Shown one piece after another: positions 136 to 18,019 of a stretch of 64,000 nt of DNA. The translations under genes and the position numbers were made by a program. The notes beneath the pieces were generated by a model that was not told where the DNA came from, did not search any database, and was given only the letters and a program-made list of their open reading frames with translations. The DNA comes from Planctomycetota bacterium. GTDB lineage: Bacteria > Planctomycetota > PLA2 > JAEUHO01. The stretch is taken from NCBI GenBank assembly GCA_965223505.1, contig CBDCWP010000039.1, positions 1 to 64,000 on the forward strand, in the 5' to 3' direction. Positions within the stretch are counted from its first letter, which is position 1. The number at the start of each line of letters is the position of its first letter.

Positions 136-1780
136 CAGGGAACGCGCTCCCAGCGCACCAGCACCCACTCCGCTAGGAGAAGCAGAAACGCGCAGAGCAG
201 GAGCCACGTCGCAACGTCGCCGCCGATGCGGATGCCGTCGCTACCGGGCGTCGACAGATCGGCGGCGTCGGCCGCCGCAGTCGTCGTGAGCAGCGCCGCC
301 GCGACGCGCTCGCCCGACAGGTCCGCGTAGATGCCGGCGGCGGGCGGCGTGAACGGCGCACCGACCGGGTCGAGCGTCTCGCCGCCCACCGTCGTCCACG
401 CGCGGCTCGTACGCTCGAGCGGTTCTCCGCGGCGGCGAATCGCAACAGGTCATCGCCGCCCCCCAGCCATCGAAGCGCGGTCGAGACGAACAGCGGAAAG
501 ACGCGCGAGTGTCCGAGGCTGAATCGATTCGTGAGCAGGGAGGTCCACGCGCTGACGCGTCGCGGCGTACCGGTCTCGAAGCCCACCGTGACCTTGCGCG
601 CCACGTTGCCTTCCGGCTCGATCTCCTCGATCGCATGCAGTCCGACGTCGGCGAACGGGTCGGCGGCGCCGAAGGTCCATGCGTCTCGTACGACGATCGG
701 GTCCCGGGCGCCGTCCTCGACGAACACGAGCGTGGGGCCCGCGTCGGCCGTCTCTTCGGTTGCGATGCGTACGTCTTCATCGCGCTCGACGAGCGTGAGC
801 GCCGGATCCGACTCGATCACCGGCGCCATGATCGGCCGGAGGTAGCCGTCGACCCTGACGCGGATCACGGACCGCGCCGGCAACACGAGATCAGCTTCCG
901 CATGCGGGCCTTCGAGCGCGTCGAGCCGCACCGTCAGGACTTGGCCCGACGCGGGTACGTCGCGGAGATGGAACGCGCCCGGCACGCTCGCGTCGCTCTG
1001 GACCTCGCCGTTCCACGGCCGGTCGTCCAACGTGACCGAGAAGCCCGCGTTGTTCGTGTGGGCGAGGTAGACGTCCACGCGGTTCCATGCGCCCGACGCC
1101 GCGGGACTCACGCCCAGCGCGGTGATGCCGTTTTGCACCAACGCCGGGGCATCGCCCGATCGCTCGATCCGCACGTGGTCCGGCACACGCGACACGACGC
1201 CGCTTGACACGGGCGACGGACCGTAGATGCGAATCGTGGTCGGATGCGCGGGGTCGCTGTGGTTCGCGATGGAGCGAATCTGCTCGTCGACGGTCGACGG
1301 CGCGGCGTCGGGTCCAAGGCCCGCCCAGCGCTTGCGCAGCAGCAGCGGGTCTTCGCCCGGCGCCAGCAGGCAACGGGTGAACGCGCCGCAGAACAGGACG
1401 CGCGTCCCGTCACGGGGCAGGGACGCCAGATCGTCCTCGAGACGCCGCCGCGCGCCCGCGAACGCGTCGCCGGCAAGCGCATTGGCCGAGCCGTCGAGCA
1501 GCAACACATAGTGTCGATCGGCATCGTCTTCCGAGCGCGGCTGGGCGAACGCGAGCCAAAGCAGGGCGCAGATGGCCAGGAACAGCGCGTACGCCCACGG
1601 ATGTCGGAAGCGGCGAACGAGGACGCGCGCGCGCGACTCCTCGACCGCCTCTTTCCAGAACAGGGTGGTGACGACCGGCGTCGGACGATGCCGAACGCGC
1701 AGCCGCTGCAGCAAGTACAGACCGAACGCGATGGCGCCCAGGCCCAGCAACAGGACGGAGACCGGCATCGCGAAGCTCAT
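135..1780 (-). CDS. BatA-like N-terminal / VWA-domain membrane protein (apparent 1-nt frameshift near 428)
   Basis: N-terminus LYLLQRLRVRHRPTPVVTTLFW resembles BatA, with a degenerate VWA motif VLLLDGSA. ORF 173..1780 turns Arg-rich at its end, while ORF 135..389 supplies a normal C-terminal TM (WLLLCAFLLLLAEW). Confidence 0.7.
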
Positions 1781-2673
1781 GCGGTGTACGCCCCCGACTC
1801 GAAGAGATGCGCCAGCTGCGGAACGACGCGCTTCTCGACGTCGAGCTGAAGCAGTCCGGCGTCGCGCCGGCGCGCGAAGGTCGCGAGCTTGTTGCAGAAC
1901 TCGTCGTACACAGCCTGGTAGCGGGCGGTGACGGCCGGTGTGATCGACACCTCTTGCGCCTCACCCGTCTCGCAGTCGACCAGGCGCAGATCCCCGTTCA
2001 GCGCCGGGTTGCGGTCCGAGGGTCGTACGAGCTGTACGAGCAACAGCTTGTGACGCGTGAGCTTGAGCGCGTTCGTCACGGCGTCGATCCCGGCGGGATC
2101 GAAGAAGTCCGAGATCACCGCGACGAGGCCGGTGCGGAGCTTCATGTCGCCGAGACGCTTCAGCGACGCGACCAGGTCCGTGCTGCTGCCCGGCTCGATC
2201 GCCGCGAGGTGATCCGCGAACTGCAGGATGCGCCGCTTGCCTGCGCGCGGTCGCAGGTGCACGTCGAGCGTGCCGGAGAACGGAAACAGCCCGACCGTGT
2301 CGTGTTGGTTCAGGCTGATCGCAGCGAGCGCGAGCGCGCAGCGCAAGCCGGCCTTCGCGCGCGGCGGTTCTTCGAGGTACATGCTCTCCGAGACGTCGGG
2401 CAACAGGTACAGCGGCAGATCCTCGAGCTCTTCGAACAGCCGTAGGAACACGCGGCCGAGACGGCGGTAGATGTTCCAGTCGATGCTGCGCAGGTCGTCG
2501 CCGGCGGCGTACGGCCGGTAGTCACGAAACTCGATGCCGTGTCCCAGATCCTTGGAGCGCTGCTCGGCGAACCGTCCACCGGGCGGCACGCGGCCGGCGA
2601 TGACGCGCAACGTCTTCAGCGACTCGAGGAACTCGGCGTCGAAGAGCTCGGATGCCGGAATGCGGCCTGCCAT
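1777..2673 (-). CDS. DUF58 family protein (MoxR operon)
   Basis: GIEFRDYRPYAAGDDLRSIDWNIY motif, DVSESM and ISDF motifs; adjacent to MoxR. Confidence 0.92.
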   Translation of the reverse strand: MAGRIPASELFDAEFLESLKTLRVIAGRVPPGGRFAEQRSKDLGHGIEFRDYRPYAAGDDLRSIDWNIYRRLGRVFLRLFEELEDLPLYLLPDVSESMYLEEPPRAKAGLRCALALAAISLNQHDTVGLFPFSGTLDVHLRPRAGKRRILQFADHLAAIEPGSSTDLVASLKRLGDMKLRTGLVAVISDFFDPAGIDAVTNALKLTRHKLLLVQLVRPSDRNPALNGDLRLVDCETGEAQEVSITPAVTARYQAVYDEFCNKLATFARRRDAGLLQLDVEKRVVPQLAHLFESGAYTA

Positions 2674-2682
2674 CGATGAGCC

Positions 2683-3705
2683 TTATCCTTCCGCGGGCTT
2701 CTTCACGCTCGAAAGCACGGCGTCGATGATCGCGTCGGGCGTGACGCCGTCGGCCTGCCCCTGGAAGTTCACGATGATGCGGTGCCGCAGCACGTCGTGC
2801 GCCGCGCGGCCGATGTCGTCCGTGCTCACGGCGAACCGGTCGCTCAGGAGCGCGCGCACCTTGCCGGCGAGCAACAAGCCCTGCGCGCCGCGCGGGCTCG
2901 AGCCGAGCGCGACGTTCTCCTTCACGAGCTCGGGGGCGTACTCGCTGTCGGGCTGGGTCGCCATGATCAGCCGCACGGCGTAGGAGCGGACGTGATCCGG
3001 CACCGGGACCTGGCGCACGACCTTGCGCAGCCGCAGGATCTCCGGGCCTTTCGATACGGGCTTGATCTCGATGTCGTCCGCGCCGACCGTGCGGTCGAGG
3101 ATGTCGTGGTACTCGCTCTCCTTCGGGTAGCCGACCACCAGCTTGAAGAGGAACCGGTCGAGCTGCGCCTCCGGCAACGGGTACGTGCCTTCCTGCTCGA
3201 TCGGGTTCTGCGTGGCCATCACGCAGTAGGGCTCCTGGAGCTCGATCGTCTTGCGACCGACCGAGACCTGACCCTCCTGCATCGCTTCGAGCAGCGCGGA
3301 CTGCGTCTTCGGCGTCGCGCGGTTGATCTCGTCGGCGAGGATGATGTTCGCGACGATCGGGCCTTCCTGGAACTGCACCTCGTGTCCGCCGCCGTCCGTC
3401 TCGATGAGCACGGAGGTGCCGACGATGTCGGCCGGCATCATGTCGGGTGTGAACTGGATGCGCGAGAACTCCAGGTGCACCGCTTCACCGAGCGAGCGAA
3501 CGAGGAGCGTCTTGCCCAGGCCCGGCACGCCTTCGAGGAGCACGTGACCGCCGGCGAACATGGCGGTCAGCACGCCGTCGACCGCGTCGTCCTGGCCGAC
3601 CATGGCGTTGCACACCTGCTCCTTGATCTTCCGATAGGTGGCCTTGAACTTCTCCGCGTTCTTCTTCGCTGTCGCGGAGGGTTGGGCGCTCGTCTGCGCT
3701 GTCAT
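2683..3705 (-). CDS. moxR: MoxR family AAA+ ATPase
   Basis: Walker A GVPGLGKT, RIQFTPD, Walker B DEINRATPKTQSALLE, NPIEQEGTYPLPEAQLDRF. Confidence 0.95.
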   Translation of the reverse strand: MTAQTSAQPSATAKKNAEKFKATYRKIKEQVCNAMVGQDDAVDGVLTAMFAGGHVLLEGVPGLGKTLLVRSLGEAVHLEFSRIQFTPDMMPADIVGTSVLIETDGGGHEVQFQEGPIVANIILADEINRATPKTQSALLEAMQEGQVSVGRKTIELQEPYCVMATQNPIEQEGTYPLPEAQLDRFLFKLVVGYPKESEYHDILDRTVGADDIEIKPVSKGPEILRLRKVVRQVPVPDHVRSYAVRLIMATQPDSEYAPELVKENVALGSSPRGAQGLLLAGKVRALLSDRFAVSTDDIGRAAHDVLRHRIIVNFQGQADGVTPDAIIDAVLSSVKKPAEG

Positions 3706-5219
3706 GGTTGTTTGGTGTCCTTGGTTGCGTTGCGGGAACGGATCTTGAGGAAGTAGGCCCGGACGAGATCGCGCATCCAGGCGGAAAGACGGGGGCGCGC
3801 AACGGGTCCGATGGGATTCGTGCGCGGTGTACGGTCCTGCGCGTCGATGGCGTCGGCGTTCTCGCGGCGCGGCTCGACGCGTTCTTGCGTGGTTTTGGTC
3901 TTGCCCGGGTTGGGTTGCCCCTTGACCCGGTCCGGGATCGGCACGCCCAGCACCAGCGACGCCGTGCCGCGGGACTTCTTCTGCTCGGACGGCCCGCCGC
4001 GGCCGTTCGCATCCGGGTCGGGCTGGTTGCCGAACCCGATGCTCAGGTCGCGGCTGACGGGGGGCTTGCGGTCGCGCAACGACGGCTGCATCCCGCCGCG
4101 TGCCTCGGAGTCCTCGGACTCGTCCTCGACCTCCTCGTCGTCCTCGACCTCGTCGTCTTCGTCGGTCGTGACCTGGTCCTTGCTCGACCAGTCGGACGCG
4201 ACGGGGTTCTTGTTGGAACCGCGCGACGCGCCACGGCCCGTCGTCGAGCCGGATTCCTCGGTGACGAGCTTCTTCGGCGCTTCGGGCGCCGGCAGGTCCT
4301 TCTTCTTCGGCTCCTTGGGATCCTCCGCGGCGTCCTTCTTCTTCTTCGACTTGAGCGGCTGGCCCTGGTTGGTGGGGGCGCCCCGCGCGGATCCCGCGCC
4401 CTTGGAGGACTCCGCGTTCGACGAAAGGCCCGCGCCCGTTCGGCCTTCCGTCTTCTTGGCCTTCTCGGAGACGTCCGCCGCGCCCTCCTTGACCTCGCCG
4501 CCGTCCTGCGGCGCGTCGGTCACCGGCTCCGTGCGATCCGTCTGTTGCGTCGTCGTCCGCTCGATGGCGCTGTCGCTCTCTTCGGCGGCGGCGTCGGCAG
4601 GGACCGACGTCTTGGCGACGCGCGTCGTGCGCGGCGTCGGAACACCGGCGTGCGTGGGCTCGCCCAGCATCCAGACCAGCAGTCCCGTCAGGAACGCCGC
4701 GGTGCCGAGCCGCCAGGCGCGAGGCTCGTCGAACGTCAGGCGCTCGGGCCGCTTCAGCTCCAACGCGGCCGCCCGGTCTACGTGCGCTTCCGCGTCGTCG
4801 AGCGCCGCGTCGATGAACGGGTTGTCCTCGTCGCGGTCGAGAAACTCGTCGGCGGTGAGCATGCGGTCTTCGAGCGATCCTGCGCGGTCGAACGCGGCGA
4901 GCGCGGCGCTGCGCGAGACCGGGCGCGTGCGCGCGCTCAGGTACCGGCTGAGAAACATCGCACCCGGCACGACGAGCATCGCGATGAGGATGGCGTACCA
5001 GGGCAGGTCCCAGCGCGGTTCGCCGTGCACCCAGTGCAGAAGCTGGATGAAGAGGAACGCGACGGGTGCGACGAAGAGGTACGGGATCACCCGGTCGATG
5101 CCGCGTTCCGACGCGTCGTGGACCGCGACGTCCCGCAGATGGGCGGCGCCGCGCTCGGCGAGCCGGTCCAGGCGTGCGCGGAGCGCGGCACGGTCGTTCG
5201 ATGCCGAGGGCGTCGTCAC
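3702..5219 (-). CDS. Membrane protein with three TM segments and a long charged low-complexity C-terminus (MoxR operon-associated)
   Basis: GTG at 5219 overlaps the upstream stop (GTGA). Hydrophobic segments, an LEDRMLTADEF motif, an acidic/Gly-rich tail and a C-terminal RDLVRAYF. Confidence 0.7.
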   Translation of the reverse strand: MTTPSASNDRAALRARLDRLAERGAAHLRDVAVHDASERGIDRVIPYLFVAPVAFLFIQLLHWVHGEPRWDLPWYAILIAMLVVPGAMFLSRYLSARTRPVSRSAALAAFDRAGSLEDRMLTADEFLDRDEDNPFIDAALDDAEAHVDRAAALELKRPERLTFDEPRAWRLGTAAFLTGLLVWMLGEPTHAGVPTPRTTRVAKTSVPADAAAEESDSAIERTTTQQTDRTEPVTDAPQDGGEVKEGAADVSEKAKKTEGRTGAGLSSNAESSKGAGSARGAPTNQGQPLKSKKKKDAAEDPKEPKKKDLPAPEAPKKLVTEESGSTTGRGASRGSNKNPVASDWSSKDQVTTDEDDEVEDDEEVEDESEDSEARGGMQPSLRDRKPPVSRDLSIGFGNQPDPDANGRGGPSEQKKSRGTASLVLGVPIPDRVKGQPNPGKTKTTQERVEPRRENADAIDAQDRTPRTNPIGPVARPRLSAWMRDLVRAYFLKIRSRNATKDTKQP

Positions 5220-7549
5220 TTCCCTTGTTTCCCCTTCTTCGGGTCCTCGGTGACGACCTCGGGATCGACCTGGACGGCTTGCAGAACCTCGCCCATCCAG
5301 CTCTTGATGTACGCGACGATCGTCGTCTGGTGGGGATCGATCTCGATGGACATACGCTGCACGGCGCCCGCGCCCTGCTTCTCCAGATCCGTGAGGTACC
5401 GGTCGTTCTTCTTCGCGATCTCCTCCAGGGAGCGCGAGAAGTCGATCGTCATCTTCTCGTCCACGGGCTGGTAGTGGACGCCGTCGAGAGAGTCGGTCAG
5501 CGCGCCGCGGGCGAGCATCCGGTGGATGACGACCTTGCTCTTGCCCGGGAAGAGCACGCCGCGCTCCGCGAGGATGATGTGGACCGTGTGGCCCGTCCAC
5601 GCGTAGCCCCGCACCGTGACCGACCCGGAGATCTTGTCTCCCTCCACCTTCGCGTCGACGTCGAGGGTGTAGGCCGACTTCTTCGGCAGCTCGCTCAAGA
5701 TCATCCGGCGAACCACGTTGTAGAGCCGTTCCTTCTGGTGCGCGCGGGCGGCGCCCGGCCCCTGGATCGTGCCGTTGATGCAGTGCACGTACGGCCCCGG
5801 CGCATTGCGTTCGCGCGCCGTGTAGGTCGCCAGCTCGTTGACCAGCGGATCGATCTGCGGTGCCGGGAGGTGGTAGCAGAGCACCGCGACGTTCTCGCGC
5901 GGGAAGTGACTCAGGATGCCTTCGTTGCCGAGCGCCCCGCCGATCGCGAAGCGGAAGTGCGCGTTCGTGAAGAACTCGGCGAGGACGACGCGGTTCGAGC
6001 TGTTCTTCTCGGTCGGCTTGAACTTCGTCGCGGCGCCGAAGCTGAGCACCTTCCCGCCGATCATGCGCTCGACGAGGTCCACGGAAAACCGCTCCTCGCC
6101 GTGCAGGTGTTGCTGGAGGCGCTTGAGTCCCTCCAGCGCTTCCTGACCGCTCTCCGGAACGATGACGGCTTGCACGTATCGCGAATACGCGCGCTTGTAG
6201 CGATGCTGCGACTCGTAGTACTTACCCAGGTTCAGGTTGACCATGCCGTCTTCGTTCATGCCGAACGACGCCGACAACAGGTGACGGAACGCTTCCTTGC
6301 CGTTGCCCGCCTTCAGGAAGATCGCACCGAGTCCGGAGTGGATCTTGTGCACCGCGTCGGGGTATCGGTCGTCACGGCCGCTCTCGATCCCCAGCTTGCC
6401 TGCGATCGTGGCGAGGTCCGGTTGGCCGGCCTCGCGCAGCTTCTCCATCAGTTCGAGCATGGCGGTGGCGCGCAGGTCCTTCTCGTGGGTGTCGTTGACC
6501 CACTTGACCGCGCGTGTGAACGTCTCGGCGCCCGAGCCGTCGTCGAGCCGCAGGTCGATGAGCAGGTGCGCCGCCTCGCGGCTCAGCCGAACCTCCGGAT
6601 ACTTGGTCAGGAACACTTCGAGCGGTTCGGCGTCCTCCGTGGCGCGGGCCCGGAAGAAGGCGAGGTCGTCCTCCGGGAACTTCGCGGGCGACGTCTCGGT
6701 GAACCGGATCACGCGGTTGACTCGGTCGATCTCCACGCGGAAGTGCTTCAGCAAGTTGAGCCCGGTGACGCCCACGACGCCGTCCTTGTGCGCGTACGCC
6801 ATCTCCTCGGGCCGAAACGCCACGTACTGCGAGAGGTCGAAGTCGCCGAACGTCAGCTCGCCGATCTCGCCGGTGGGACGTCCGCGCTCGAGGCACATGT
6901 CCCGGTCGACGACCGTGTCGTACGTCGCCGTGCCCAGCGCCATCGCGCCCGGCTCGCCGTCCTCGTAGAGGACCGGAAGCCAGACGAGGTCGTTGGTGAG
7001 CGTGACGGGCAAGGTCGTGCTGCCCTCCACCTCTTCCATCGCGTCTTCGCTCTGCGCGGCGGGGGGCGAGAGCGTCATGAAGCCCGCCTTGAGGTCGAGC
7101 TCCATGTGGTAGCGCTTCAAGATCTCCATCCCGATGGTGCCGAAGAGCGTGGTCTCGCCAAGCGCCGGTGAGTGGAACTTGGTGAAGTCCTCGTAGACCT
7201 TCTCGGGTCCGTGCTCGCGGGCGGCGACCTTCACGTTCAGGTCGGGCAGGTGGATCGTGATCTCATTGGTGCTGCCGTCGCGGTTCTCGGCCCGAATGCC
7301 GCCGGCCGCCTGGTTGTGAAGCTGCAGGCCGCAGGGGTTCTCGTACTCGACGAACAGGTTGCCCGGGATGCGCCGGAAGCGCGTCGAGAGGTCGCACGAG
7401 ACGACGAGCTTGCCGGCGACGATCCGAACGGGAATGCGGGCGCCGCCTTCAGGCCCGCCGGACCCCGGCGCATCGGCTTCCGCGACCGGTCGGCCCAGGA
7501 GCGTGCAGGCCGCGATCAGCAGTCCGGCACACACGATTCGATGGGACAC
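5216..7549 (-). CDS. Secreted multidomain protein: two degenerate aspartyl-protease-like domains, TPR region, thioredoxin/Omp28-like domain
   Basis: GGAGG RBS before GTG 7549; signal peptide; GTIGMEILKRY and GVTGLNLLKHFRVEID retropepsin-like motifs; VVLAEFFT...YHLPAPQIDPL thioredoxin-like segment. Confidence 0.65.
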   Translation of the reverse strand: MSHRIVCAGLLIAACTLLGRPVAEADAPGSGGPEGGARIPVRIVAGKLVVSCDLSTRFRRIPGNLFVEYENPCGLQLHNQAAGGIRAENRDGSTNEITIHLPDLNVKVAAREHGPEKVYEDFTKFHSPALGETTLFGTIGMEILKRYHMELDLKAGFMTLSPPAAQSEDAMEEVEGSTTLPVTLTNDLVWLPVLYEDGEPGAMALGTATYDTVVDRDMCLERGRPTGEIGELTFGDFDLSQYVAFRPEEMAYAHKDGVVGVTGLNLLKHFRVEIDRVNRVIRFTETSPAKFPEDDLAFFRARATEDAEPLEVFLTKYPEVRLSREAAHLLIDLRLDDGSGAETFTRAVKWVNDTHEKDLRATAMLELMEKLREAGQPDLATIAGKLGIESGRDDRYPDAVHKIHSGLGAIFLKAGNGKEAFRHLLSASFGMNEDGMVNLNLGKYYESQHRYKRAYSRYVQAVIVPESGQEALEGLKRLQQHLHGEERFSVDLVERMIGGKVLSFGAATKFKPTEKNSSNRVVLAEFFTNAHFRFAIGGALGNEGILSHFPRENVAVLCYHLPAPQIDPLVNELATYTARERNAPGPYVHCINGTIQGPGAARAHQKERLYNVVRRMILSELPKKSAYTLDVDAKVEGDKISGSVTVRGYAWTGHTVHIILAERGVLFPGKSKVVIHRMLARGALTDSLDGVHYQPVDEKMTIDFSRSLEEIAKKNDRYLTDLEKQGAGAVQRMSIEIDPHQTTIVAYIKSWMGEVLQAVQVDPEVVTEDPKKGKQGK

Positions 7550-7681
7550 GCAGCCTCCTGACTCGCCCGGCTGCGGCGGGAAGCGCCGGACTGTAGACAG
7601 GATACGCAAATCAGGGACCTCGGCAGCCCCCGAACCGGATTCAGCCGAACAGATTCAGCCCACGTGCGCCGGCGTTTCGAG

Positions 7682-8830
7682 CTACTTCGTGAGCTCGCCG
7701 ATGACCTCGCCGAAGGCCCAGGTGTCGGCCTTCATGCTGACTTCGATTTCGGTGTTGTTGGGAACGCTCACGGCGATCGGGCCGAAGCCGTCGCCTCAGC
7801 AGCCGGTGAAGATCGCCTTGGCGATCTCCTCGCTGGTCCCCTTCTTGGCAATCGTGAACTCGGGCGACTTGCCGAACGGCGCCCAACCGAAGTACTCCTC
7901 GCCCGCCCTGCCGAAGTAGCGCAGCCGGCCGGGATCGATGCCGATCTCTCCGGCGCCGCGCTGGATCGCGAACTCCGCGCGCAGCGGCCCGCCCCATTCG
8001 ACGGCAACCGTCTTGCCCTTGCCGACCTCGAGCGGCTTCGAGCGCCCCTGGCGGAACCGGACGACGTTCTGTCCGAGGCCGAGCTTGCCGCCGTGGATGT
8101 CGTACGTCGCGACGGGCACTTCGAGTCCGTCCTTCGCGCGCGCCAGCTCGAACGAGTAGCGGCCGTCCGTGCTGCGAACGACGGCGCTCTGCAGCTTCGC
8201 CTCCGTCGCGTGCTTGCTGCGCAGGTCGAGCACGCCGGTCTCGCCCTTGTGCGGGTGCAGCGACATCGTCGTGCCGTTGGAGGCGACATCGACGTCGTAC
8301 AGCTTGCCTTCGACGTTGATCACGCTCGAAAGGAACGCGGCCGAACGGCCGTGACCGATGATCACTGCGTCTTCACCGACGTCGCCATAGCGGCCGTCGT
8401 TGTTCTGGTCGATGACGCGAATCGGCGTGCCGTCGACGTAGCCGACCATCGCGCCGCCGGCGGCGTAGCGCCAGCCTGCGCCATTGTTGACGAGTCGCGC
8501 GGCGTATCTGAAGTCGCCGTCCGAGAGCACCACGAATCCCGACTTGCCGCCGATGACCACGTCGAGCGCGCCGTCTGCGTCGCGGTCGATCTGGAGCGCG
8601 TCGCCCTGGAGCTTCGTGGCGAACGTCTTGCCGCGTCCCTTGCGGAAGTCGAGGGTGGCGCCGACGGCATCGAAGCGCTCGGCCGGCAGCTCGAACTTCC
8701 AGCTTCGATAGACCTTGTACGTAAGCTCGATCGTGTCGGGCGTCGCAGTGGTATCCGGTTCGGCATGGGTCGTCGGCGTTGCCGCGAGGCACAAAGCGAC
8801 GATCGAGAACGCGAGCATCCAGGTGCGCAT
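7682..8830 (-). CDS. Secreted protein, candidate selenoprotein (Cys-Sec-Gly; UGA at 7796-7798)
   Basis: Signal peptide MRTWMLAFSIVALCLA. The ORF track stops at FTGC-TGA, but the frame stays open for 37 more codons (34/37 ending in G/C) to TAG at 7682-7684. Confidence 0.7.
7772..7795 (-). promoter_or_regulatory. Hairpin immediately 3' of the in-frame UGA (possible SECIS)
   Basis: GGCGA-C-GGC-UUCG-GCC-(C)-G-(A)-UCGCC can fold. It sits closer to the UGA than a canonical bacterial SECIS. Confidence 0.35.
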
Positions 8831-8860: not shown

Positions 8861-9700
8861 CTACACCGGTGAGACCGACAGATCGCGGTCCATCGAGACC
8901 TTCGTGTAGGCGTAGTGGAAGCCCAGCCGTTCGGCGTTGCGGCGGGTGGGGCTGTCGGCATGGCAGTGCACGTAGGTGAAGTCGACGCCTTGGAACGCCG
9001 CGCACGCGAGGCGGGCGCGCATCAGCGCCGTCTGAACGCCGCGCCTTCGATGTTCGGGCAGTGTGCTGGCGAAGTAGAAGGCGCCCAGCCGTCGTTTCAC
9101 CGACACGACGCCGCCGCCGGCCGGCTCGCCGTCCAGGCTCGCGATGAAGCAGTGGGCCGTTGGTCCTCGCGCGTTCATGCGGCCCAGCTGGATGTCGGCT
9201 GCGGACGGCGAACCGTCGGCGTTGCCGCGTGTCACCAGGTCCGCGAACGCGTCGAGTGCTTCCTCGTCGTCTTTCGGGACCGACGTGACCGTCAGGCCCG
9301 GTGTCGCCCGGTCGTCGGGCGCCGGCTCGTGTGCCGGATCGAACACCCACGCCTGCACGACCTCGCCGGCCTCGTAGCCGCGGGCCGTCAACCGCGCTTC
9401 GAGCGTGTCGTGTTCCAGGCGGTAGACGTCGATGCGGCTCGGTGCGTTCATCGCACGACACGCGCGCTCGAGCTCGTCGATCAGCGCGTCGCCGACGTCA
9501 GCGAGATCGAGCCCGAGCCCGCGCGTGCCGCGCAAGTGATTGTCGCCGGGCGCGACGACCTGCAACGCGCCCGCGACGTCGCGCACTTGCAGCGGATACG
9601 CGGGGTCGTCGGCGAGCCAGCGGCGCGCGGCGCGCGCAATGCCCTCGGCCTTGCTGCCTTCGATGCGCCGCGCGATGTCGAGGAGGTCGGGAAGCGTCAC
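8861..9700 (-). CDS. GNAT family N-acetyltransferase
   Basis: Acetyl-CoA motif STLPEHRRRGVQTAL and NAERLGF. Confidence 0.85.
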   Translation of the reverse strand: MTLPDLLDIARRIEGSKAEGIARAARRWLADDPAYPLQVRDVAGALQVVAPGDNHLRGTRGLGLDLADVGDALIDELERACRAMNAPSRIDVYRLEHDTLEARLTARGYEAGEVVQAWVFDPAHEPAPDDRATPGLTVTSVPKDDEEALDAFADLVTRGNADGSPSAADIQLGRMNARGPTAHCFIASLDGEPAGGGVVSVKRRLGAFYFASTLPEHRRRGVQTALMRARLACAAFQGVDFTYVHCHADSPTRRNAERLGFHYAYTKVSMDRDLSVSPV

Positions 9701-14661: not shown

Positions 14662-15027
14662 CTACCGTCCGATCGAGAAGCAGCCGGGCACGCCGGCCGC
14701 GACGGGCACGCCTCAGGTGCCACCGGAACAGACGCTCTTCACCGCCGCTTGCGGATCGATGGCGCGCTCGACTGGAAGAACGATGCTGCGCGCCGGTTCC
14801 GGCCGCGCGGCGGCACGAATCGAGGTCGTCCTCGGCTTCGCGGCAACGGCGCGGGCGGGCGCCGGTGGTGCGAACGACGTCACGGGCTCGTTGTCGAAGA
14901 CGTGCGTGGTCGACGTGCGTGCGTGGGTGTCGTGCGCGACGGCGTCCGACGCCGCGGTCGACACGGACGTCGCACAGGCGGTGAATGCGGACGCCGCGAT
15001 GAACGTACCAATCCAGCGGATGATCAT
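14662..15027 (-). CDS. Small lipoprotein A, candidate selenoprotein (…VCSGGT-U-GVPVAAGVPGCFSIGR)
   Basis: ATG 15027, lipobox-like FTAC, Pro/Ala/Arg-rich linker, UGA at 14713-14715, then 16 codons to TAG that are conserved with the neighbouring gene. Confidence 0.72.
14680..14700 (-). promoter_or_regulatory. Candidate bacterial SECIS hairpin A
   Basis: GCGGCCGG-CGUGC-CCGGCUGC, an 8-bp stem starting 12 nt after the UGA, with GU in the loop. Confidence 0.65.
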
Positions 15028-15219
15028 GATCTTCTCTCGCAATTTTCGTGTTGTCGGTTCGCCGTCGAGGCGCGAATCGTCGAGGATTGGTGAGCTCGTT
15101 CTCGAGGTCACGTGCGCTCGCGTCAGGAGCATCCGCAAACGTGCGACTTGGACGACGCGGGCAGTCCCAATCCGTCGAACTTCGTCGGGGCCCTCATTCG
15201 GGCGACTCTCGTCGCGGTG

Positions 15220-15753
15220 CTAGTTGCGCGTGGTGAAGCAGTCGGGAACCCCGACCGCGCTCGGTACGCCTCAGGTCCCGCTTGGACAGCAGTCGCGGAA
15301 GAGATCCACGCGCATCGGCCGGCACGGGCGCGGCACGCACCGCGGCGGGGGCGGAGGCGCGACCCTGCGCGCGGCGGGCGGCGCGGTGCGGCGAAGCGGC
15401 TTCGCGCAGATCGTCGGTGCGCGGCGCGAGATGACGCGCGGCCCCGGCTCCGTGACCACCATCGAACCTGTGCGAACCAACGGCCTCGGCAGGTTGGACG
15501 ACGTCGCGGCGGTCGATCGTGCGCACGGCACGTGCCGGGTGACCGGAGCCGTGAGGGTGAGGCGGGACCCGTAACCGGTTACGCTCGGCGGCGGCAGCGC
15601 TTGCTTGCTGTTCGACGGCACTGCGATCGAGGTCTGCCCGGATGCCGTGTCCCACGTGCCGCGATTCCAGGTACCGTCGTCCACGACGGGCTGCGTCGCG
15701 CAGCCCATCAGAAATAGCGCCGCAACCATGGCGCCGGCCAGGCGAATGCCCAT
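15220..15753 (-). CDS. Small lipoprotein B, candidate selenoprotein (…DCCPSGT-U-GVPSAVGVPDCFTTRN)
   Basis: AAGGAAG RBS, ATG 15753, lipobox LMGC, Pro/Arg-rich linker, UGA at 15271-15273, then 16 codons to TAG. Confidence 0.72.
15238..15258 (-). promoter_or_regulatory. Candidate bacterial SECIS hairpin B
   Basis: GCGGUCGG-GGUUC-CCGACUGC, starting 12 nt after the UGA; a U-A pair replaces the C-G pair of hairpin A. Confidence 0.65.
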
Positions 15754-16132
15754 GCGTACTTCCTTCCGTGCCCGGCCGGTCCCTAGTCGACCAGGCGATC
15801 TCACGAGTCCCTCACGTTCTGTGAACGAGACCGGAATACGCATCGACCGTTTGCCCCCTCGGAGTTGAATCGTTCGGCCTTGTAACCGTCCACGTTCGCC
15901 TGAATGTCACCGCACGCCCGTGGTCTCGACCGACGGGCGCCGGCTGCCGACTCTCCGTGGGGTCGGCTGACCGGGCTCCTTCCTTGAACCGAACCGTCCG
16001 CTTCAAGTGCCTTGGGGACAGGGGCTTGTGGTCTCCGCGCGCCCCAACGAACCCCGCATCGGACGAAAAACCGCCGGCGCCGCGGAGGGTCGAGACGCCG
16101 GGCGGGCACTACATACTGGAGACCCTGAGAGC

Positions 16133-18019
16133 ATGAACCCGCCCCGCGCCCCGACCGCCGACCTGCTGATGGAGCACAGCGGCTTCCTGCGTGGGCTGGC
16201 CCGCAGTCTCGTGCGGGACGAGCAACAAGCCGAGGACGTCGTGCAGGAGACGTATCTCGCCGTGTTACGCAAGCCGCCGCCTCCGCACGTGCGGCTCAAG
16301 GCGTGGCTGGCCGGGATCGCGCGCAACCTCGCCTTGCGGACCGTGCGCCGCGAGACGCGGCTGAAGCAGCGCGAGCAGCGCGCTTCCGAGCGCGAATCGG
16401 CGTTGCCCTCGTCGGACGACGTCGTGGAGCGCCTGGAGATCCAGCAGCGACTGGCCGCCGCGGTCATGTCGCTCGACGAGCCGGGCCGCTCCGCCATCGT
16501 CTTCCGGTACTTCGACGGCCTGACGCCGACGCAGATCGCTACGCTGCTGAAGCAGCCGGTGCGCACGATCGAGACGCGACTTCGGCGCGCACGCCGGCGG
16601 CTACGCGCGTCCCTGGATACGAGCTACGGGAGCCGGGCGACGTGGCAGGCCGCGTTGGTGCCCGTTGCCGGCTTCGGGTTGGAGAGCGCCGCCGTCGGCA
16701 AGGCGGCTGGAACGCTGACGACGACGGGAACGAGCACCGCAACGGGTGCGGGCTCTGCCGTCGTCGCGGGAGTCATCATGAGTACCAAACTGATCGCCGG
16801 CGCCGCCGTCGTCGTTGCCGCCGCCGGCGCCTTCGTCGCGGGATGGCACTTGAGGCCGGCGCCCCAGGACACGACCTCCACGGCCGACGCGTCAGGCGTC
16901 GAGAACGAGGACGAGCCCGGGCTCGGGACCGACGCGATGCTGCTCGCCAACGTTCGAGCCGAGCTCGAGACGGAGCGGGAAGCGCACGGAGCGACGAAGT
17001 CCGAGATGGAGTCGCTCGCGACGCGCGTGAAGGAGCTCGAAGCGCAGGTGGCCGCAGCGGCGGCGGAAGGCGGCGGCACGCCCGAGAAGCTGAAGCCCGG
17101 TACGACGTGGTACACGCCGAACGAGCACGCGGAAGCGATCGAGGGCATCGACTGGAATCAAACGGGCGAGGCCATCGTCAAGTTGAACCCGCTGCTCGTG
17201 AAGCTGGCGGAAGCGCTCGAGGCGGGGAGGGAATTCAAAGAGCTCGCGGAGCTCTCGCGCTGGAACACGCCGCTGGCGGTCAACGCGCTGAACGCGTCGC
17301 GCAAGGGCGTGCCGGGCACCGGCGTCAACGGCGCGTTCACCCATCCGTCCATCATGGCGAACATGGTGCACGCCGCGCTCGTTCAGGGCGGCAAGCCGCT
17401 CGACGCGGGCCAGGAGAAGAACCTGCGCGCGATCGCGGACCGGTTCCTCGGCGCGGACGAGCATCGATTGCGCTCGTACGACGAGACGACCTTCGGGCTG
17501 AAGAAGCTCATCGACGAGGCGGCGCTCAAGGCGCGCCTGTTCGAGGACATCGACGCGTTGCTGACGGAGGAGCAGCGCGAGATCCTGCATCCGGCGTCCG
17601 TACGCGGCCGCTGCGGCATCGACCTCTTCTCGAGCGGGATCGTCTGGTACACGCTCTATCGACCGGCCCGATTCGACACGCCCGAGAAGCTCGCTTCGCA
17701 CCTGGCCTCGAACGTGATGACGCACTTCCAGCTCGCGGCCGAGCTCAGGCCGGTCGTGGACGAGCTCGCCGCGGACTACGCCGCTTCGTTCCCGTCCGGA
17801 TATCTGGATGCCGAGCCGGACCCGCTGACCAGGGCGCAGCTGACGAATCCCAGTGCGATCGGCCAGCTCTTCGTGCCCGTCGATCGGCCGCGCATCGCCG
17901 CGGAGCAACAGCTGGCTTTCTACACGGCGCTCCACGACCGTCTCCCTGCGGGATCACCCGCGGCGCACAAGGTGCGTGCCGAGGTCGGGTTCGTCCTGCC
18001 CGTGAAGTGGACGCCGTAG
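16133..18019 (+). CDS. ECF sigma-70 factor with TM and long C-terminal extension
   Basis: AEDVVQETYL, AWLAGIARN and region 4 (IATLLKQPVRTIETRLRRAR), followed by a TM helix, a coiled coil and a large extra domain. Confidence 0.85.
   Translation: MNPPRAPTADLLMEHSGFLRGLARSLVRDEQQAEDVVQETYLAVLRKPPPPHVRLKAWLAGIARNLALRTVRRETRLKQREQRASERESALPSSDDVVERLEIQQRLAAAVMSLDEPGRSAIVFRYFDGLTPTQIATLLKQPVRTIETRLRRARRRLRASLDTSYGSRATWQAALVPVAGFGLESAAVGKAAGTLTTTGTSTATGAGSAVVAGVIMSTKLIAGAAVVVAAAGAFVAGWHLRPAPQDTTSTADASGVENEDEPGLGTDAMLLANVRAELETEREAHGATKSEMESLATRVKELEAQVAAAAAEGGGTPEKLKPGTTWYTPNEHAEAIEGIDWNQTGEAIVKLNPLLVKLAEALEAGREFKELAELSRWNTPLAVNALNASRKGVPGTGVNGAFTHPSIMANMVHAALVQGGKPLDAGQEKNLRAIADRFLGADEHRLRSYDETTFGLKKLIDEAALKARLFEDIDALLTEEQREILHPASVRGRCGIDLFSSGIVWYTLYRPARFDTPEKLASHLASNVMTHFQLAAELRPVVDELAADYAASFPSGYLDAEPDPLTRAQLTNPSAIGQLFVPVDRPRIAAEQQLAFYTALHDRLPAGSPAAHKVRAEVGFVLPVKWTP

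Follow-up and report, generated by a model that had tools for sequence, protein, structure and literature searches.

The E. coli gene fdhF is the prototype of selenocysteine (Sec) decoding by SelB and a bacterial selenocysteine insertion sequence (bSECIS). Animal thioredoxin reductase has a C-terminal Gly-Cys-Sec-Gly redox centre in which Sec is the penultimate residue of a flexible tail, and in SoxY, which has an Ig-like sandwich fold, the carrier arm bears a reactive Cys between glycines (GGCGG). The gene described here shares features with each of these systems. It lies on the minus strand of a 64,000-nucleotide stretch of contig CBDCWP010000039.1 (assembly GCA_965223505.1, Planctomycetota bacterium), referred to below as the window, and its 344-codon open reading frame (ORF) is followed by an in-frame UGA and 37 further sense codons. 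As judged from comparison with its homologs, the UGA at codon 345 is very probably read as Sec, and the gene would encode a 382-residue exported selenoprotein of an uncatalogued Planctomycetota family.

Like bSECIS-decoded bacterial genes, the window gene has an in-frame UGA, homologs with Cys, an in-ORF hairpin with a 5-nt loop, and selA, selB, selC and selD in its genome. The likeness extends to the loop itself, which has G and then G or U at its positions 2-3 and is 23 nt from the UGA. The gene differs from them in that its family has no Pfam or NCBIfam model and in that the upper stem is short in the window's subgroup.

The window protein and animal thioredoxin reductase have the same G-C-U-G tetrapeptide (residues 343-346 once the UGA is read through). 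In both, the vicinal Cys and Sec could form a selenenylsulfide and lie in flexible, Gly-rich surroundings. An earlier reading of the window (hereafter the first-pass annotation) had drawn this parallel, and it holds for the tetrapeptide but not for the fold or the position in the chain. The dyad of the window protein is not at the chain end, since 37 residues follow it and are predicted to fold into a beta-sandwich. In addition, the protein is modelled as all-beta with no FAD/NAD(P)H disulfide oxidoreductase Pfam match at E<=1, and it is bacterial, predicted to be exported and would be decoded by an in-ORF SECIS. SoxY differs in that its arm is the C-terminus, whereas the dyad here would sit in an internal loop; there is no sequence-family match to SoxY and no sox genes lie nearby.

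Vicinal Cys-Sec (CU) motifs also occur in bacterial families listed in PMC13188914 (SaoC CU-COOH, NF040734; SaoL; HgcA; KCU-star/DUF466; MbdU), some of which are extracytoplasmic or lipoproteins. These come mostly from anaerobes and from an organometal context. The window protein differs from these in fold, length and neighbourhood and has 0 NCBIfam matches at E<=1. The genes downstream resemble Bat (Bacteroides aerotolerance) operons in their co-directional, tightly packed genes for MoxR (AAA_3), DUF58 and BatA-N proteins. The difference is that the operon of the window is led by the selenoprotein gene and by a gene for a p797-like lipoprotein.

A conserved in-frame UGA in Planctomycetota homologs

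The first-pass annotation had described F-T-G-C followed by TGA, 37 codons and TAG, with 34 of the 37 codons ending in G or C. This layout was confirmed on the minus strand (Table 1), as was the codon count (manual count; the exceptions are GTT, GAA and GAA).

Table 1. Features of the selenoprotein gene and of the genes downstream of it (positions in the window).
Feature	Position	Strand	Remarks
Full selenoprotein coding sequence	7685..8830	-	382 codons, Sec = codon 345; frame kept through TGA in homologs
Start codon ATG	8830-8828	-	
Signal-peptide-like N-terminal segment, residues ~1-24	8759..8830	-	MRTWMLAFSIVALCLAATPTTHA; read from sequence, cleavage site inferred
344-codon ORF up to F-T-G-C	8830-7799	-	TGC = 7801-7799
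C-terminal FN3/Ig-like beta-sandwich, residues ~280-382	7685..7993	-	Spans the Sec codon; structure alignment
Cys344-Sec345 dyad, within F-T-G-C-U-G-D-G	7796..7801	-	TGC 7801-7799, TGA 7798-7796
Extension after Sec, 37 sense codons	7685..7795	-	GDGFGPIAVSVPNNTEIEVSMKADTWAFGEVIGELTK
Family-conserved SECIS-like hairpin	7762..7778	-	GAUCGC[CGUGA]GCGUUC; loop at 7772-7768
True stop TAG	7684-7682	-	
p797 partner gene	5216..7609	-	Database version 777 aa, start 7549; predicted lipoprotein
orfX, membrane protein	3702..5201	-	Long charged low-complexity middle; start not fixed
MoxR-type AAA+ ATPase	2683..3705	-	Pfam AAA_3, E 8e-62
DUF58 (VWA-like) gene	1777..2673	-	Pfam DUF58, E 6.8e-35
Protein with BatA-type N-terminal domain	173..1780	-	Pfam BatA, E 9.9e-6, 26.3 bits vs cut-off 25.9

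When 401 genomes of the phylum were searched in six frames, 126 gave matches, and the strong full-length ones contain one or two TGA codons and reach query residue 375-381. The locus set used for comparison comprises 70 homologous loci from 54 genomes, of which 68 align over the site and 69 are informative. TGA lies within the dyad in 65 of the 69 informative loci, Cys only is found in three (L037, L057 and L070), and one locus has neither. Where a stop codon stands at the dyad site it is TGA in 65/65 cases and never TAA or TAG. The TGA form is held by at least 52 of the 401 sampled genomes.

The composition of the dyad varies between loci. Fifty loci have Cys-Sec, while two adjacent TGA codons (Sec-Sec) are present in five (L027, L042, L071, L048 and L055) and the order is swapped to Sec-Cys in two (L077 and L079). 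A spacer separates the residues in five loci (Cys-x(1-2)-Sec), and Sec has no Cys within four residues in three. The loci lacking TGA include two with Cys-Cys and one with Ser-Cys (L037). One locus has Trp-Phe at the dyad and is not aligned over the site, and one contig ends just after GGC and is uninformative.

The frame continues beyond the site for 36-61 codons in the homologous loci and for 189 codons in a fused form. The motifs G-x-G-F-x-P-V-A-V-S-V-P and W-A-F-G, or subfamily variants of them, are common to the loci, and in many homologs the extension is terminated by a second TGA. The ratio of nonsynonymous to synonymous differences (pN/pS) in the extension behind the hairpin is 0.72 compared with 0.67 in the 60 codons before the site; as pS is 0.5-0.6 and near saturation, the ratio indicates that the extension resembles the upstream coding part and does not by itself indicate strong purifying selection.

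The truncation of these genes is also apparent in protein databases. A word-index protein search returned 49 proteins at E<=0.001, the window's own included, all of them from Planctomycetota-type metagenome bins and all unnamed or labelled 'hypothetical'. Their matches span at most 90% of the 382-residue query, and in the 25 listed of the 49 alignment rows the proteins end at ...GC, ...GxC or nearby. Database homologs seem to end at GC because gene callers cut there; the DNA continues in frame. An exhaustive search of 1.84 billion representatives yielded 558 proteins at E<=1e-3, 250 at E<=1e-10 and 121 at E<=1e-30, which together with the distribution of the TGA form makes this a large family. 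Among the best 150 of the 558, most end at query residue 344/345 and 13 proteins reach query residues 374-381 without a stop. These 13 have Cys-Cys (9 proteins), x-Cys (3) or a lost dyad (1), so that Cys occupies the site in 12/13. Cys at the UGA site in TGA-free relatives is, on the evidence of these alignments, the classical Sec/Cys signature. The first-pass annotation had held that homologs ending at GC, or carrying Trp, Arg or Gly at the site, would speak against a selenoprotein; what was found is a frame running through TGA in the great majority of informative loci and Cys in the three Cys loci and in nearly all read-through database proteins.

A quick IQ-TREE tree of 76 rows, rooted at its midpoint, requires at least two to three Sec/Cys changes, for which no direction is claimed. 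Ten of the 12 Cys-only rows fall in one clade (SH-aLRT, the Shimodaira-Hasegawa-like approximate likelihood ratio test, 99).

A candidate SECIS element and the selenocysteine machinery

The region around the UGA was aligned without gaps over 60 nt in 62 loci (59 TGA rows and 3 Cys rows), with the UGA in columns 4-6 and a hairpin stem in columns 24-29 / 35-40. The stem begins 20 nt past the A of UGA (19 nt between), and the distance from UGA to the apical loop is 23 nt. The three inner stem pairs are nearly never broken: pairs 27-37 and 29-35 are each formed in 61/62 rows, and the middle pair 28-36 is GC in 38 rows, AU in 16, UA in 7 and CG in 1, and broken in 0. Column 28 is the first base of an Ala/Thr/Ser codon and column 36 the third base of a Ser/Arg/Gly codon; judged from these codons, protein coding gives no reason for the two columns to match. 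The covariation score of 0.259 was reached by 0/500 shuffles and is above every slid control.

A 5-nt loop of the form N-G-[G/U]-N-N is present in 59/59 TGA rows (CGUGA 34, CGUGC 6, CGGGA 5, CGGGC 4, CGGUG 4, CGGCG 4, AGGUA 2), and the pattern is lost in 2/3 Cys rows (CGCGC, GGCAC). Synonymous divergence is 0.196 in the hairpin codons compared with 0.506 before them, 0.597 after them and 0.544 in the 60 codons upstream. The family hairpin fits the bSECIS consensus in loop size, loop G and 23-nt spacing, as far as that consensus is given in the available part of PMC13188914. An Rfam scan of positions 7600-7900 gave a single chance match only (mir-622, E 7.6).

The first-pass annotation had reported a GC hairpin directly behind the UGA. 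Such a hairpin is present in the window's copy; it is not the family-conserved one, which starts 20 nt downstream. The hairpin seen then is probably a second, stabler one (in the stretch of 63 nt that starts at UGA in the window: minimum free energy (MFE) -15.7 kcal/mol; stem at nt +10..+17 / +24..+32), and this is limited to the closest relatives of the window gene. The same annotation regarded the hairpin geometry as a reason for weaker support than in a pair of lipoprotein genes in the window. That argument falls away, as the window loop CGUGA matches the loop CGUGC of one of the pair, though three bases further from the UGA. The pair itself (14662-15138 and 15220-16566, minus strand) reads ...SGGT-U-GVP and ...PSGT-U-GVP with loops CGUGC and GGUUC. 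Both of its hairpins start 23 nt from the U of UGA, and the loop of the first gene fits the loop consensus of the present family.

The genome encodes a complete set of selenocysteine genes, each scoring above its curated cut-off (assembly 92.5% complete): selB (335.7 bits), tRNA-Sec or selC (69.2 bits), selA (507 bits) and selD (338 bits, with one in-frame TGA inside). SelB and tRNA-Sec would decode the UGA, guided by the small in-frame hairpin about 20 nt downstream. At E<=1e-60, selB was found in 50/52 genomes with the TGA form compared with 285/401 genomes searched (counted by eye), and the two TGA-form genomes without a match are bins of 88% and 85% completeness. The selenocysteine trait is thus very common in the sampled phylum.

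The selA and selD genes adjoin (G000:C8:36851-39232; L087 and L088), with selD directly behind selA. The TGA of selD is followed by a hairpin with a 7-bp stem and an 8-nt loop, which provides a within-genome example of a bona fide SECIS.

Predicted fold of the read-through protein

The 382-aa form was modelled with AlphaFold2 from an alignment of 54 read-through homologs that are 23-53% identical to the window protein. The model is all-beta, with a predicted local distance difference test (pLDDT) of 93.7 and a predicted template modelling score of 0.88. The first-pass annotation had suggested that the extension would form further beta-strands, and the model bears this out by placing three strands there (352-355, 362-370 and 374-380; pLDDT 96-97) that complete the last domain. 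In the model the extension is the last three strands of a C-terminal FN3-like sandwich and the Cys-Sec pair lies in a Gly-rich loop, and a product ending at Cys344 would therefore lack the last three strands of the sandwich. Confidence falls to 79 at residues 341-350, the position of the dyad.

FN3/Ig-type domains match model residues 280-382 in VIA-align with Z 6.0-6.9, which is generic fold likeness only. The N-terminal part has DxDxDG-like loops. D141, G146, D154, P239, G280, G307, E311, P318, P323 and the Sec position are invariant in the 54-row alignment. The first 30 residues score low in the model (pLDDT 57-63) and include a helix at 4-14; together with the signal-peptide-like segment this makes export of the protein a reasonable inference, and similar hydrophobic N-termini are found in homologs. 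As far as alignment and model indicate, what is conserved is one Sec (or Cys), mostly with another chalcogen residue next to it, in a Gly-rich flexible loop of a beta-sandwich protein that is predicted to be exported.

Searches with the protein or its model returned no assignable family. A Pfam scan of the read-through protein gave sub-threshold noise only (DUF7283 at E 0.068, EF-hand_5, FG-GAP_3), a scan of the June 2026 NCBIfam release gave 0 families at E<=1, and Foldseek with the whole model against the PDB gave weak multi-Ig matches only (TM <= 0.17). The best match in a profile search of PDB sequences, an antibody light chain (E 0.0036), was judged to be noise.

Gene neighbourhood

All genes from 8830 down to 173 are on the minus strand and tightly packed; from orfX onwards, neighbouring genes overlap or are only a few bases apart. 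In 31/70 loci (1.5-kb flanks) the next gene downstream is a p797 homolog in the same orientation, and the selenoprotein genes linked to p797 form one clade (SH-aLRT 98, quick tree). The order selenoprotein-p797-orfX-MoxR-DUF58-BatA was found in 8/10 loci extended to 10 kb, in addition to the window, and the two extended loci without the six-gene order belong to a paralogous subfamily. No terminator was predicted on the minus strand between p797 and the selenoprotein gene, a weak hint that the two may be co-transcribed. The GNAT acetyltransferase gene upstream (8861-9700, minus strand) is beside homologs in 1/70 loci, the window's own.

p797 belongs to an unnamed Planctomycetota family (155 matches at E<=1e-10). 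Neither p797 nor orfX has a Pfam or NCBIfam match. The N-terminus of p797, as read from the sequence, has a lipobox-like LIAAC. The AlphaFold2 model of the 797-aa protein (pLDDT 89.8) contains a bilobed pepsin-like part (plasmepsin/renin, E about 1e-7 in Foldseek) without the canonical DTG motifs, a helical TPR-like part, and a thioredoxin-like domain followed by a sandwich. The last two resemble HBP35 (5y1a, E 1.1e-8) and 2axo (E 4e-6) in Foldseek, and the family consensus has no Cys at the thioredoxin-motif position.

Possible functions of the Cys-Sec loop

The dyad loop may be an extracytoplasmic mobile redox head, a proposal that is given an even chance. Oxidation would close its selenolate/thiol pair into an eight-membered selenenylsulfide ring, which a thioredoxin of the TlpA/Redoxin type would open again. 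The partners of the head would be the lipoprotein p797, whose gene may be co-transcribed, and the MoxR-DUF58-BatA module. A thioredoxin partner is suggested by one homolog (L033; 1033-2616, minus strand), in which the reading frame of the extension carries on into an AhpC-TSA/Redoxin domain containing WCGPC (Pfam E 4.3e-24). The thioredoxin part of this homolog has no signal peptide of its own, and the fusion exists only if the UGA is read through.

Several observations count against this mechanism. The Redoxin fusion was found in one homolog only, and translation of a separate ORF might in principle begin at an internal Met in it. Three of the TGA forms lack any Cys within four residues, the dyad is missing entirely from two relatives, and the thioredoxin-like domain of p797 has no Cys in its consensus. 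Because 3/13 read-through database proteins and L037, with Ser-Cys, have a single Cys, the selenenylsulfide would not be obligatory.

The main rival, possible though on the whole unlikely, is that the loop of the same selenoprotein instead binds a soft metal or metalloid (Hg, Cu, As, Cd) or, as a swinging Gly-rich arm, carries a covalent S/Se intermediate in the manner of SoxY. Strict conservation is confined to the Sec (or one Cys), and three TGA and four Cys forms do without the Cys beside it. The motif G-G-C-U-G-G-G on a beta-sandwich resembles a carrier arm. The catalogued CU-motif families SaoL, SaoC, HgcA and MbdU are metal or organometal related in the available part of PMC13188914, and the top fold match of p797 is the hemin-binding protein HBP35. 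MoxR systems are often chaperones for cofactor or metal insertion, a role that also appears in the available part of PMC11834572. However, the sole domain fusion found is to a thiol-disulfide Redoxin domain, the conserved six-gene set contains no metal-transport or resistance gene, and Pfam gives neither SoxY nor a metal-binding family at E<=1.

The redox proposal can be extended to the whole operon. More doubtfully, the Cys-Sec protein and p797 might together form the chemically active extracytoplasmic head of a MoxR-DUF58-BatA machine, with the arm matured or driven by the AAA+ module. According to the available part of PMC11834572, Bat operons are tied to oxidative-stress tolerance and the supply of reducing power in Bacteroidota. 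If the proposal is true, Bat-type operons would acquire their first selenoprotein component, and a system whose biochemical function is obscure would gain a testable chemistry.

Alternatives to selenocysteine at codon 345

The UGA is considered to be read as Sec because of homolog conservation, Cys forms, the extension, the hairpin and the Sec machinery of the genome, all of which are comparative evidence and not chemistry. Several points weigh against this reading, most of them concerning the hairpin. The window's copy is weak (3 bp, a U-U mismatch and 2 bp; -3.8 kcal/mol alone), and the upper stem in its subgroup, the Pro-Val type, has 3 bp before the bulge, which is short for the published bSECIS model (upper stem of 4-16 bp and MFE <= -7.5 kcal/mol, as given in the available part of PMC13188914). 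A 44-nt segment of the window with the core forced folds at -7.9 kcal/mol, and relatives form stems of 6-7 bp, or of 3+4 bp interrupted by a bulge. In the window the conserved hairpin overlaps and competes with the stabler clade-specific fold, and the core hairpin appears in the unconstrained MFE structure of only 28/62 rows. Moreover, the 81 nt around the site fold no better than shuffles (-22.0 vs a mean of -21.76, z = -0.08). Finally, selB is common in the phylum sample (71%), so that its co-occurrence with the TGA form adds little.

A real stop at the UGA, with a protein ending at Cys344 and a separate small ORF or regulatory RNA behind it, would accord with the termination of homologs there by every gene caller and with a local fold no better than shuffles. 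This is very improbable. The stretch behind the UGA in the window opens with GGC and has no start codon at its 5' end, its sole ATG being its 21st codon. It keeps its frame and amino-acid motifs across homologs of 23-53% identity, continues the upstream frame with no intervening stop in 13 database proteins and three Cys loci, and supplies three strands of a confidently modelled domain. Against a plain stop also stands the exclusive use of TGA at the site, where TAA and TAG never occur.

It is extremely unlikely that a reassigned code or near-cognate suppression makes the UGA specify one of the ordinary amino acids. Comparative data alone cannot name the inserted residue, but TGA is a normal stop here: a second TGA ends many extensions, and selA, selB and other genes have no internal TGA. 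The residue aligned in TGA-free forms is Cys, the hallmark of a Sec/Cys pair; the genome also encodes the full set of Sec factors, and the hairpin agrees with the bSECIS model.

The possibility that the TGA arose by faulty sequencing or assembly, or by a recent nonsense mutation in a pseudogene, is refuted, because contigs from three public runs (two samples, one study; one run possibly the window's own source) span the TGA with identical letters and 0 differences, a point that the first-pass annotation had asked to be checked, and because TGA is kept in 65/69 informative homologous loci and in 52 genomes.

Novelty and wider relatives

The decoding mechanism is standard, and what is new is the family, its fold context, the dyad series and the link to the operon. 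A 2026 review (PMC13188914) catalogues 119 families or subfamilies of prokaryotic selenoproteins with their domain identifiers, and its Table 1 contains no fitting entry. Full-text searches combining selenoproteins with Planctomycetes or with MoxR/Bat terms returned nothing on the window's family. The family goes unmentioned in the available parts of PMC12013277 and PMC4807772, whose supplementary tables (S2 and S9, respectively) could list candidates. A literature search found no selenoprotein or p797-like lipoprotein described as a Bat component, including in the available part of PMC11834572. The proposal of the first-pass annotation that this is an unrecognised, exported selenoprotein family is upheld by the prevalence of TGA among the loci, the Cys forms, the lack of a catalogue or model match and the signal-peptide-like N-terminus.

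Selenoprotein genes are routinely truncated by annotation: the copies of this family found in NCBI, JGI and ENA are unnamed or called 'hypothetical protein' and end at the TGA. The family alignment and hairpin model are usable for the correction of these annotations and for an entry in the selenoprotein catalogue. Through its fixed position as the first gene of a MoxR-DUF58-BatA operon, the gene connects the use of selenium with a stress module that is widespread and poorly understood. In addition, the series CU, UU, UC, CC and C-x-x-U at one position of a non-thioredoxin fold is a natural experiment on the vicinal selenol/thiol pair.

The core domains are also present without the dyad in larger proteins, two of which (P0167 and P0184) have an N-terminal zf-HC2 anti-sigma domain. 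These zf-HC2 proteins, which have the N-terminal and middle domains of the family as their outer part, hint that the domains may have a sensing or ligand-binding role.

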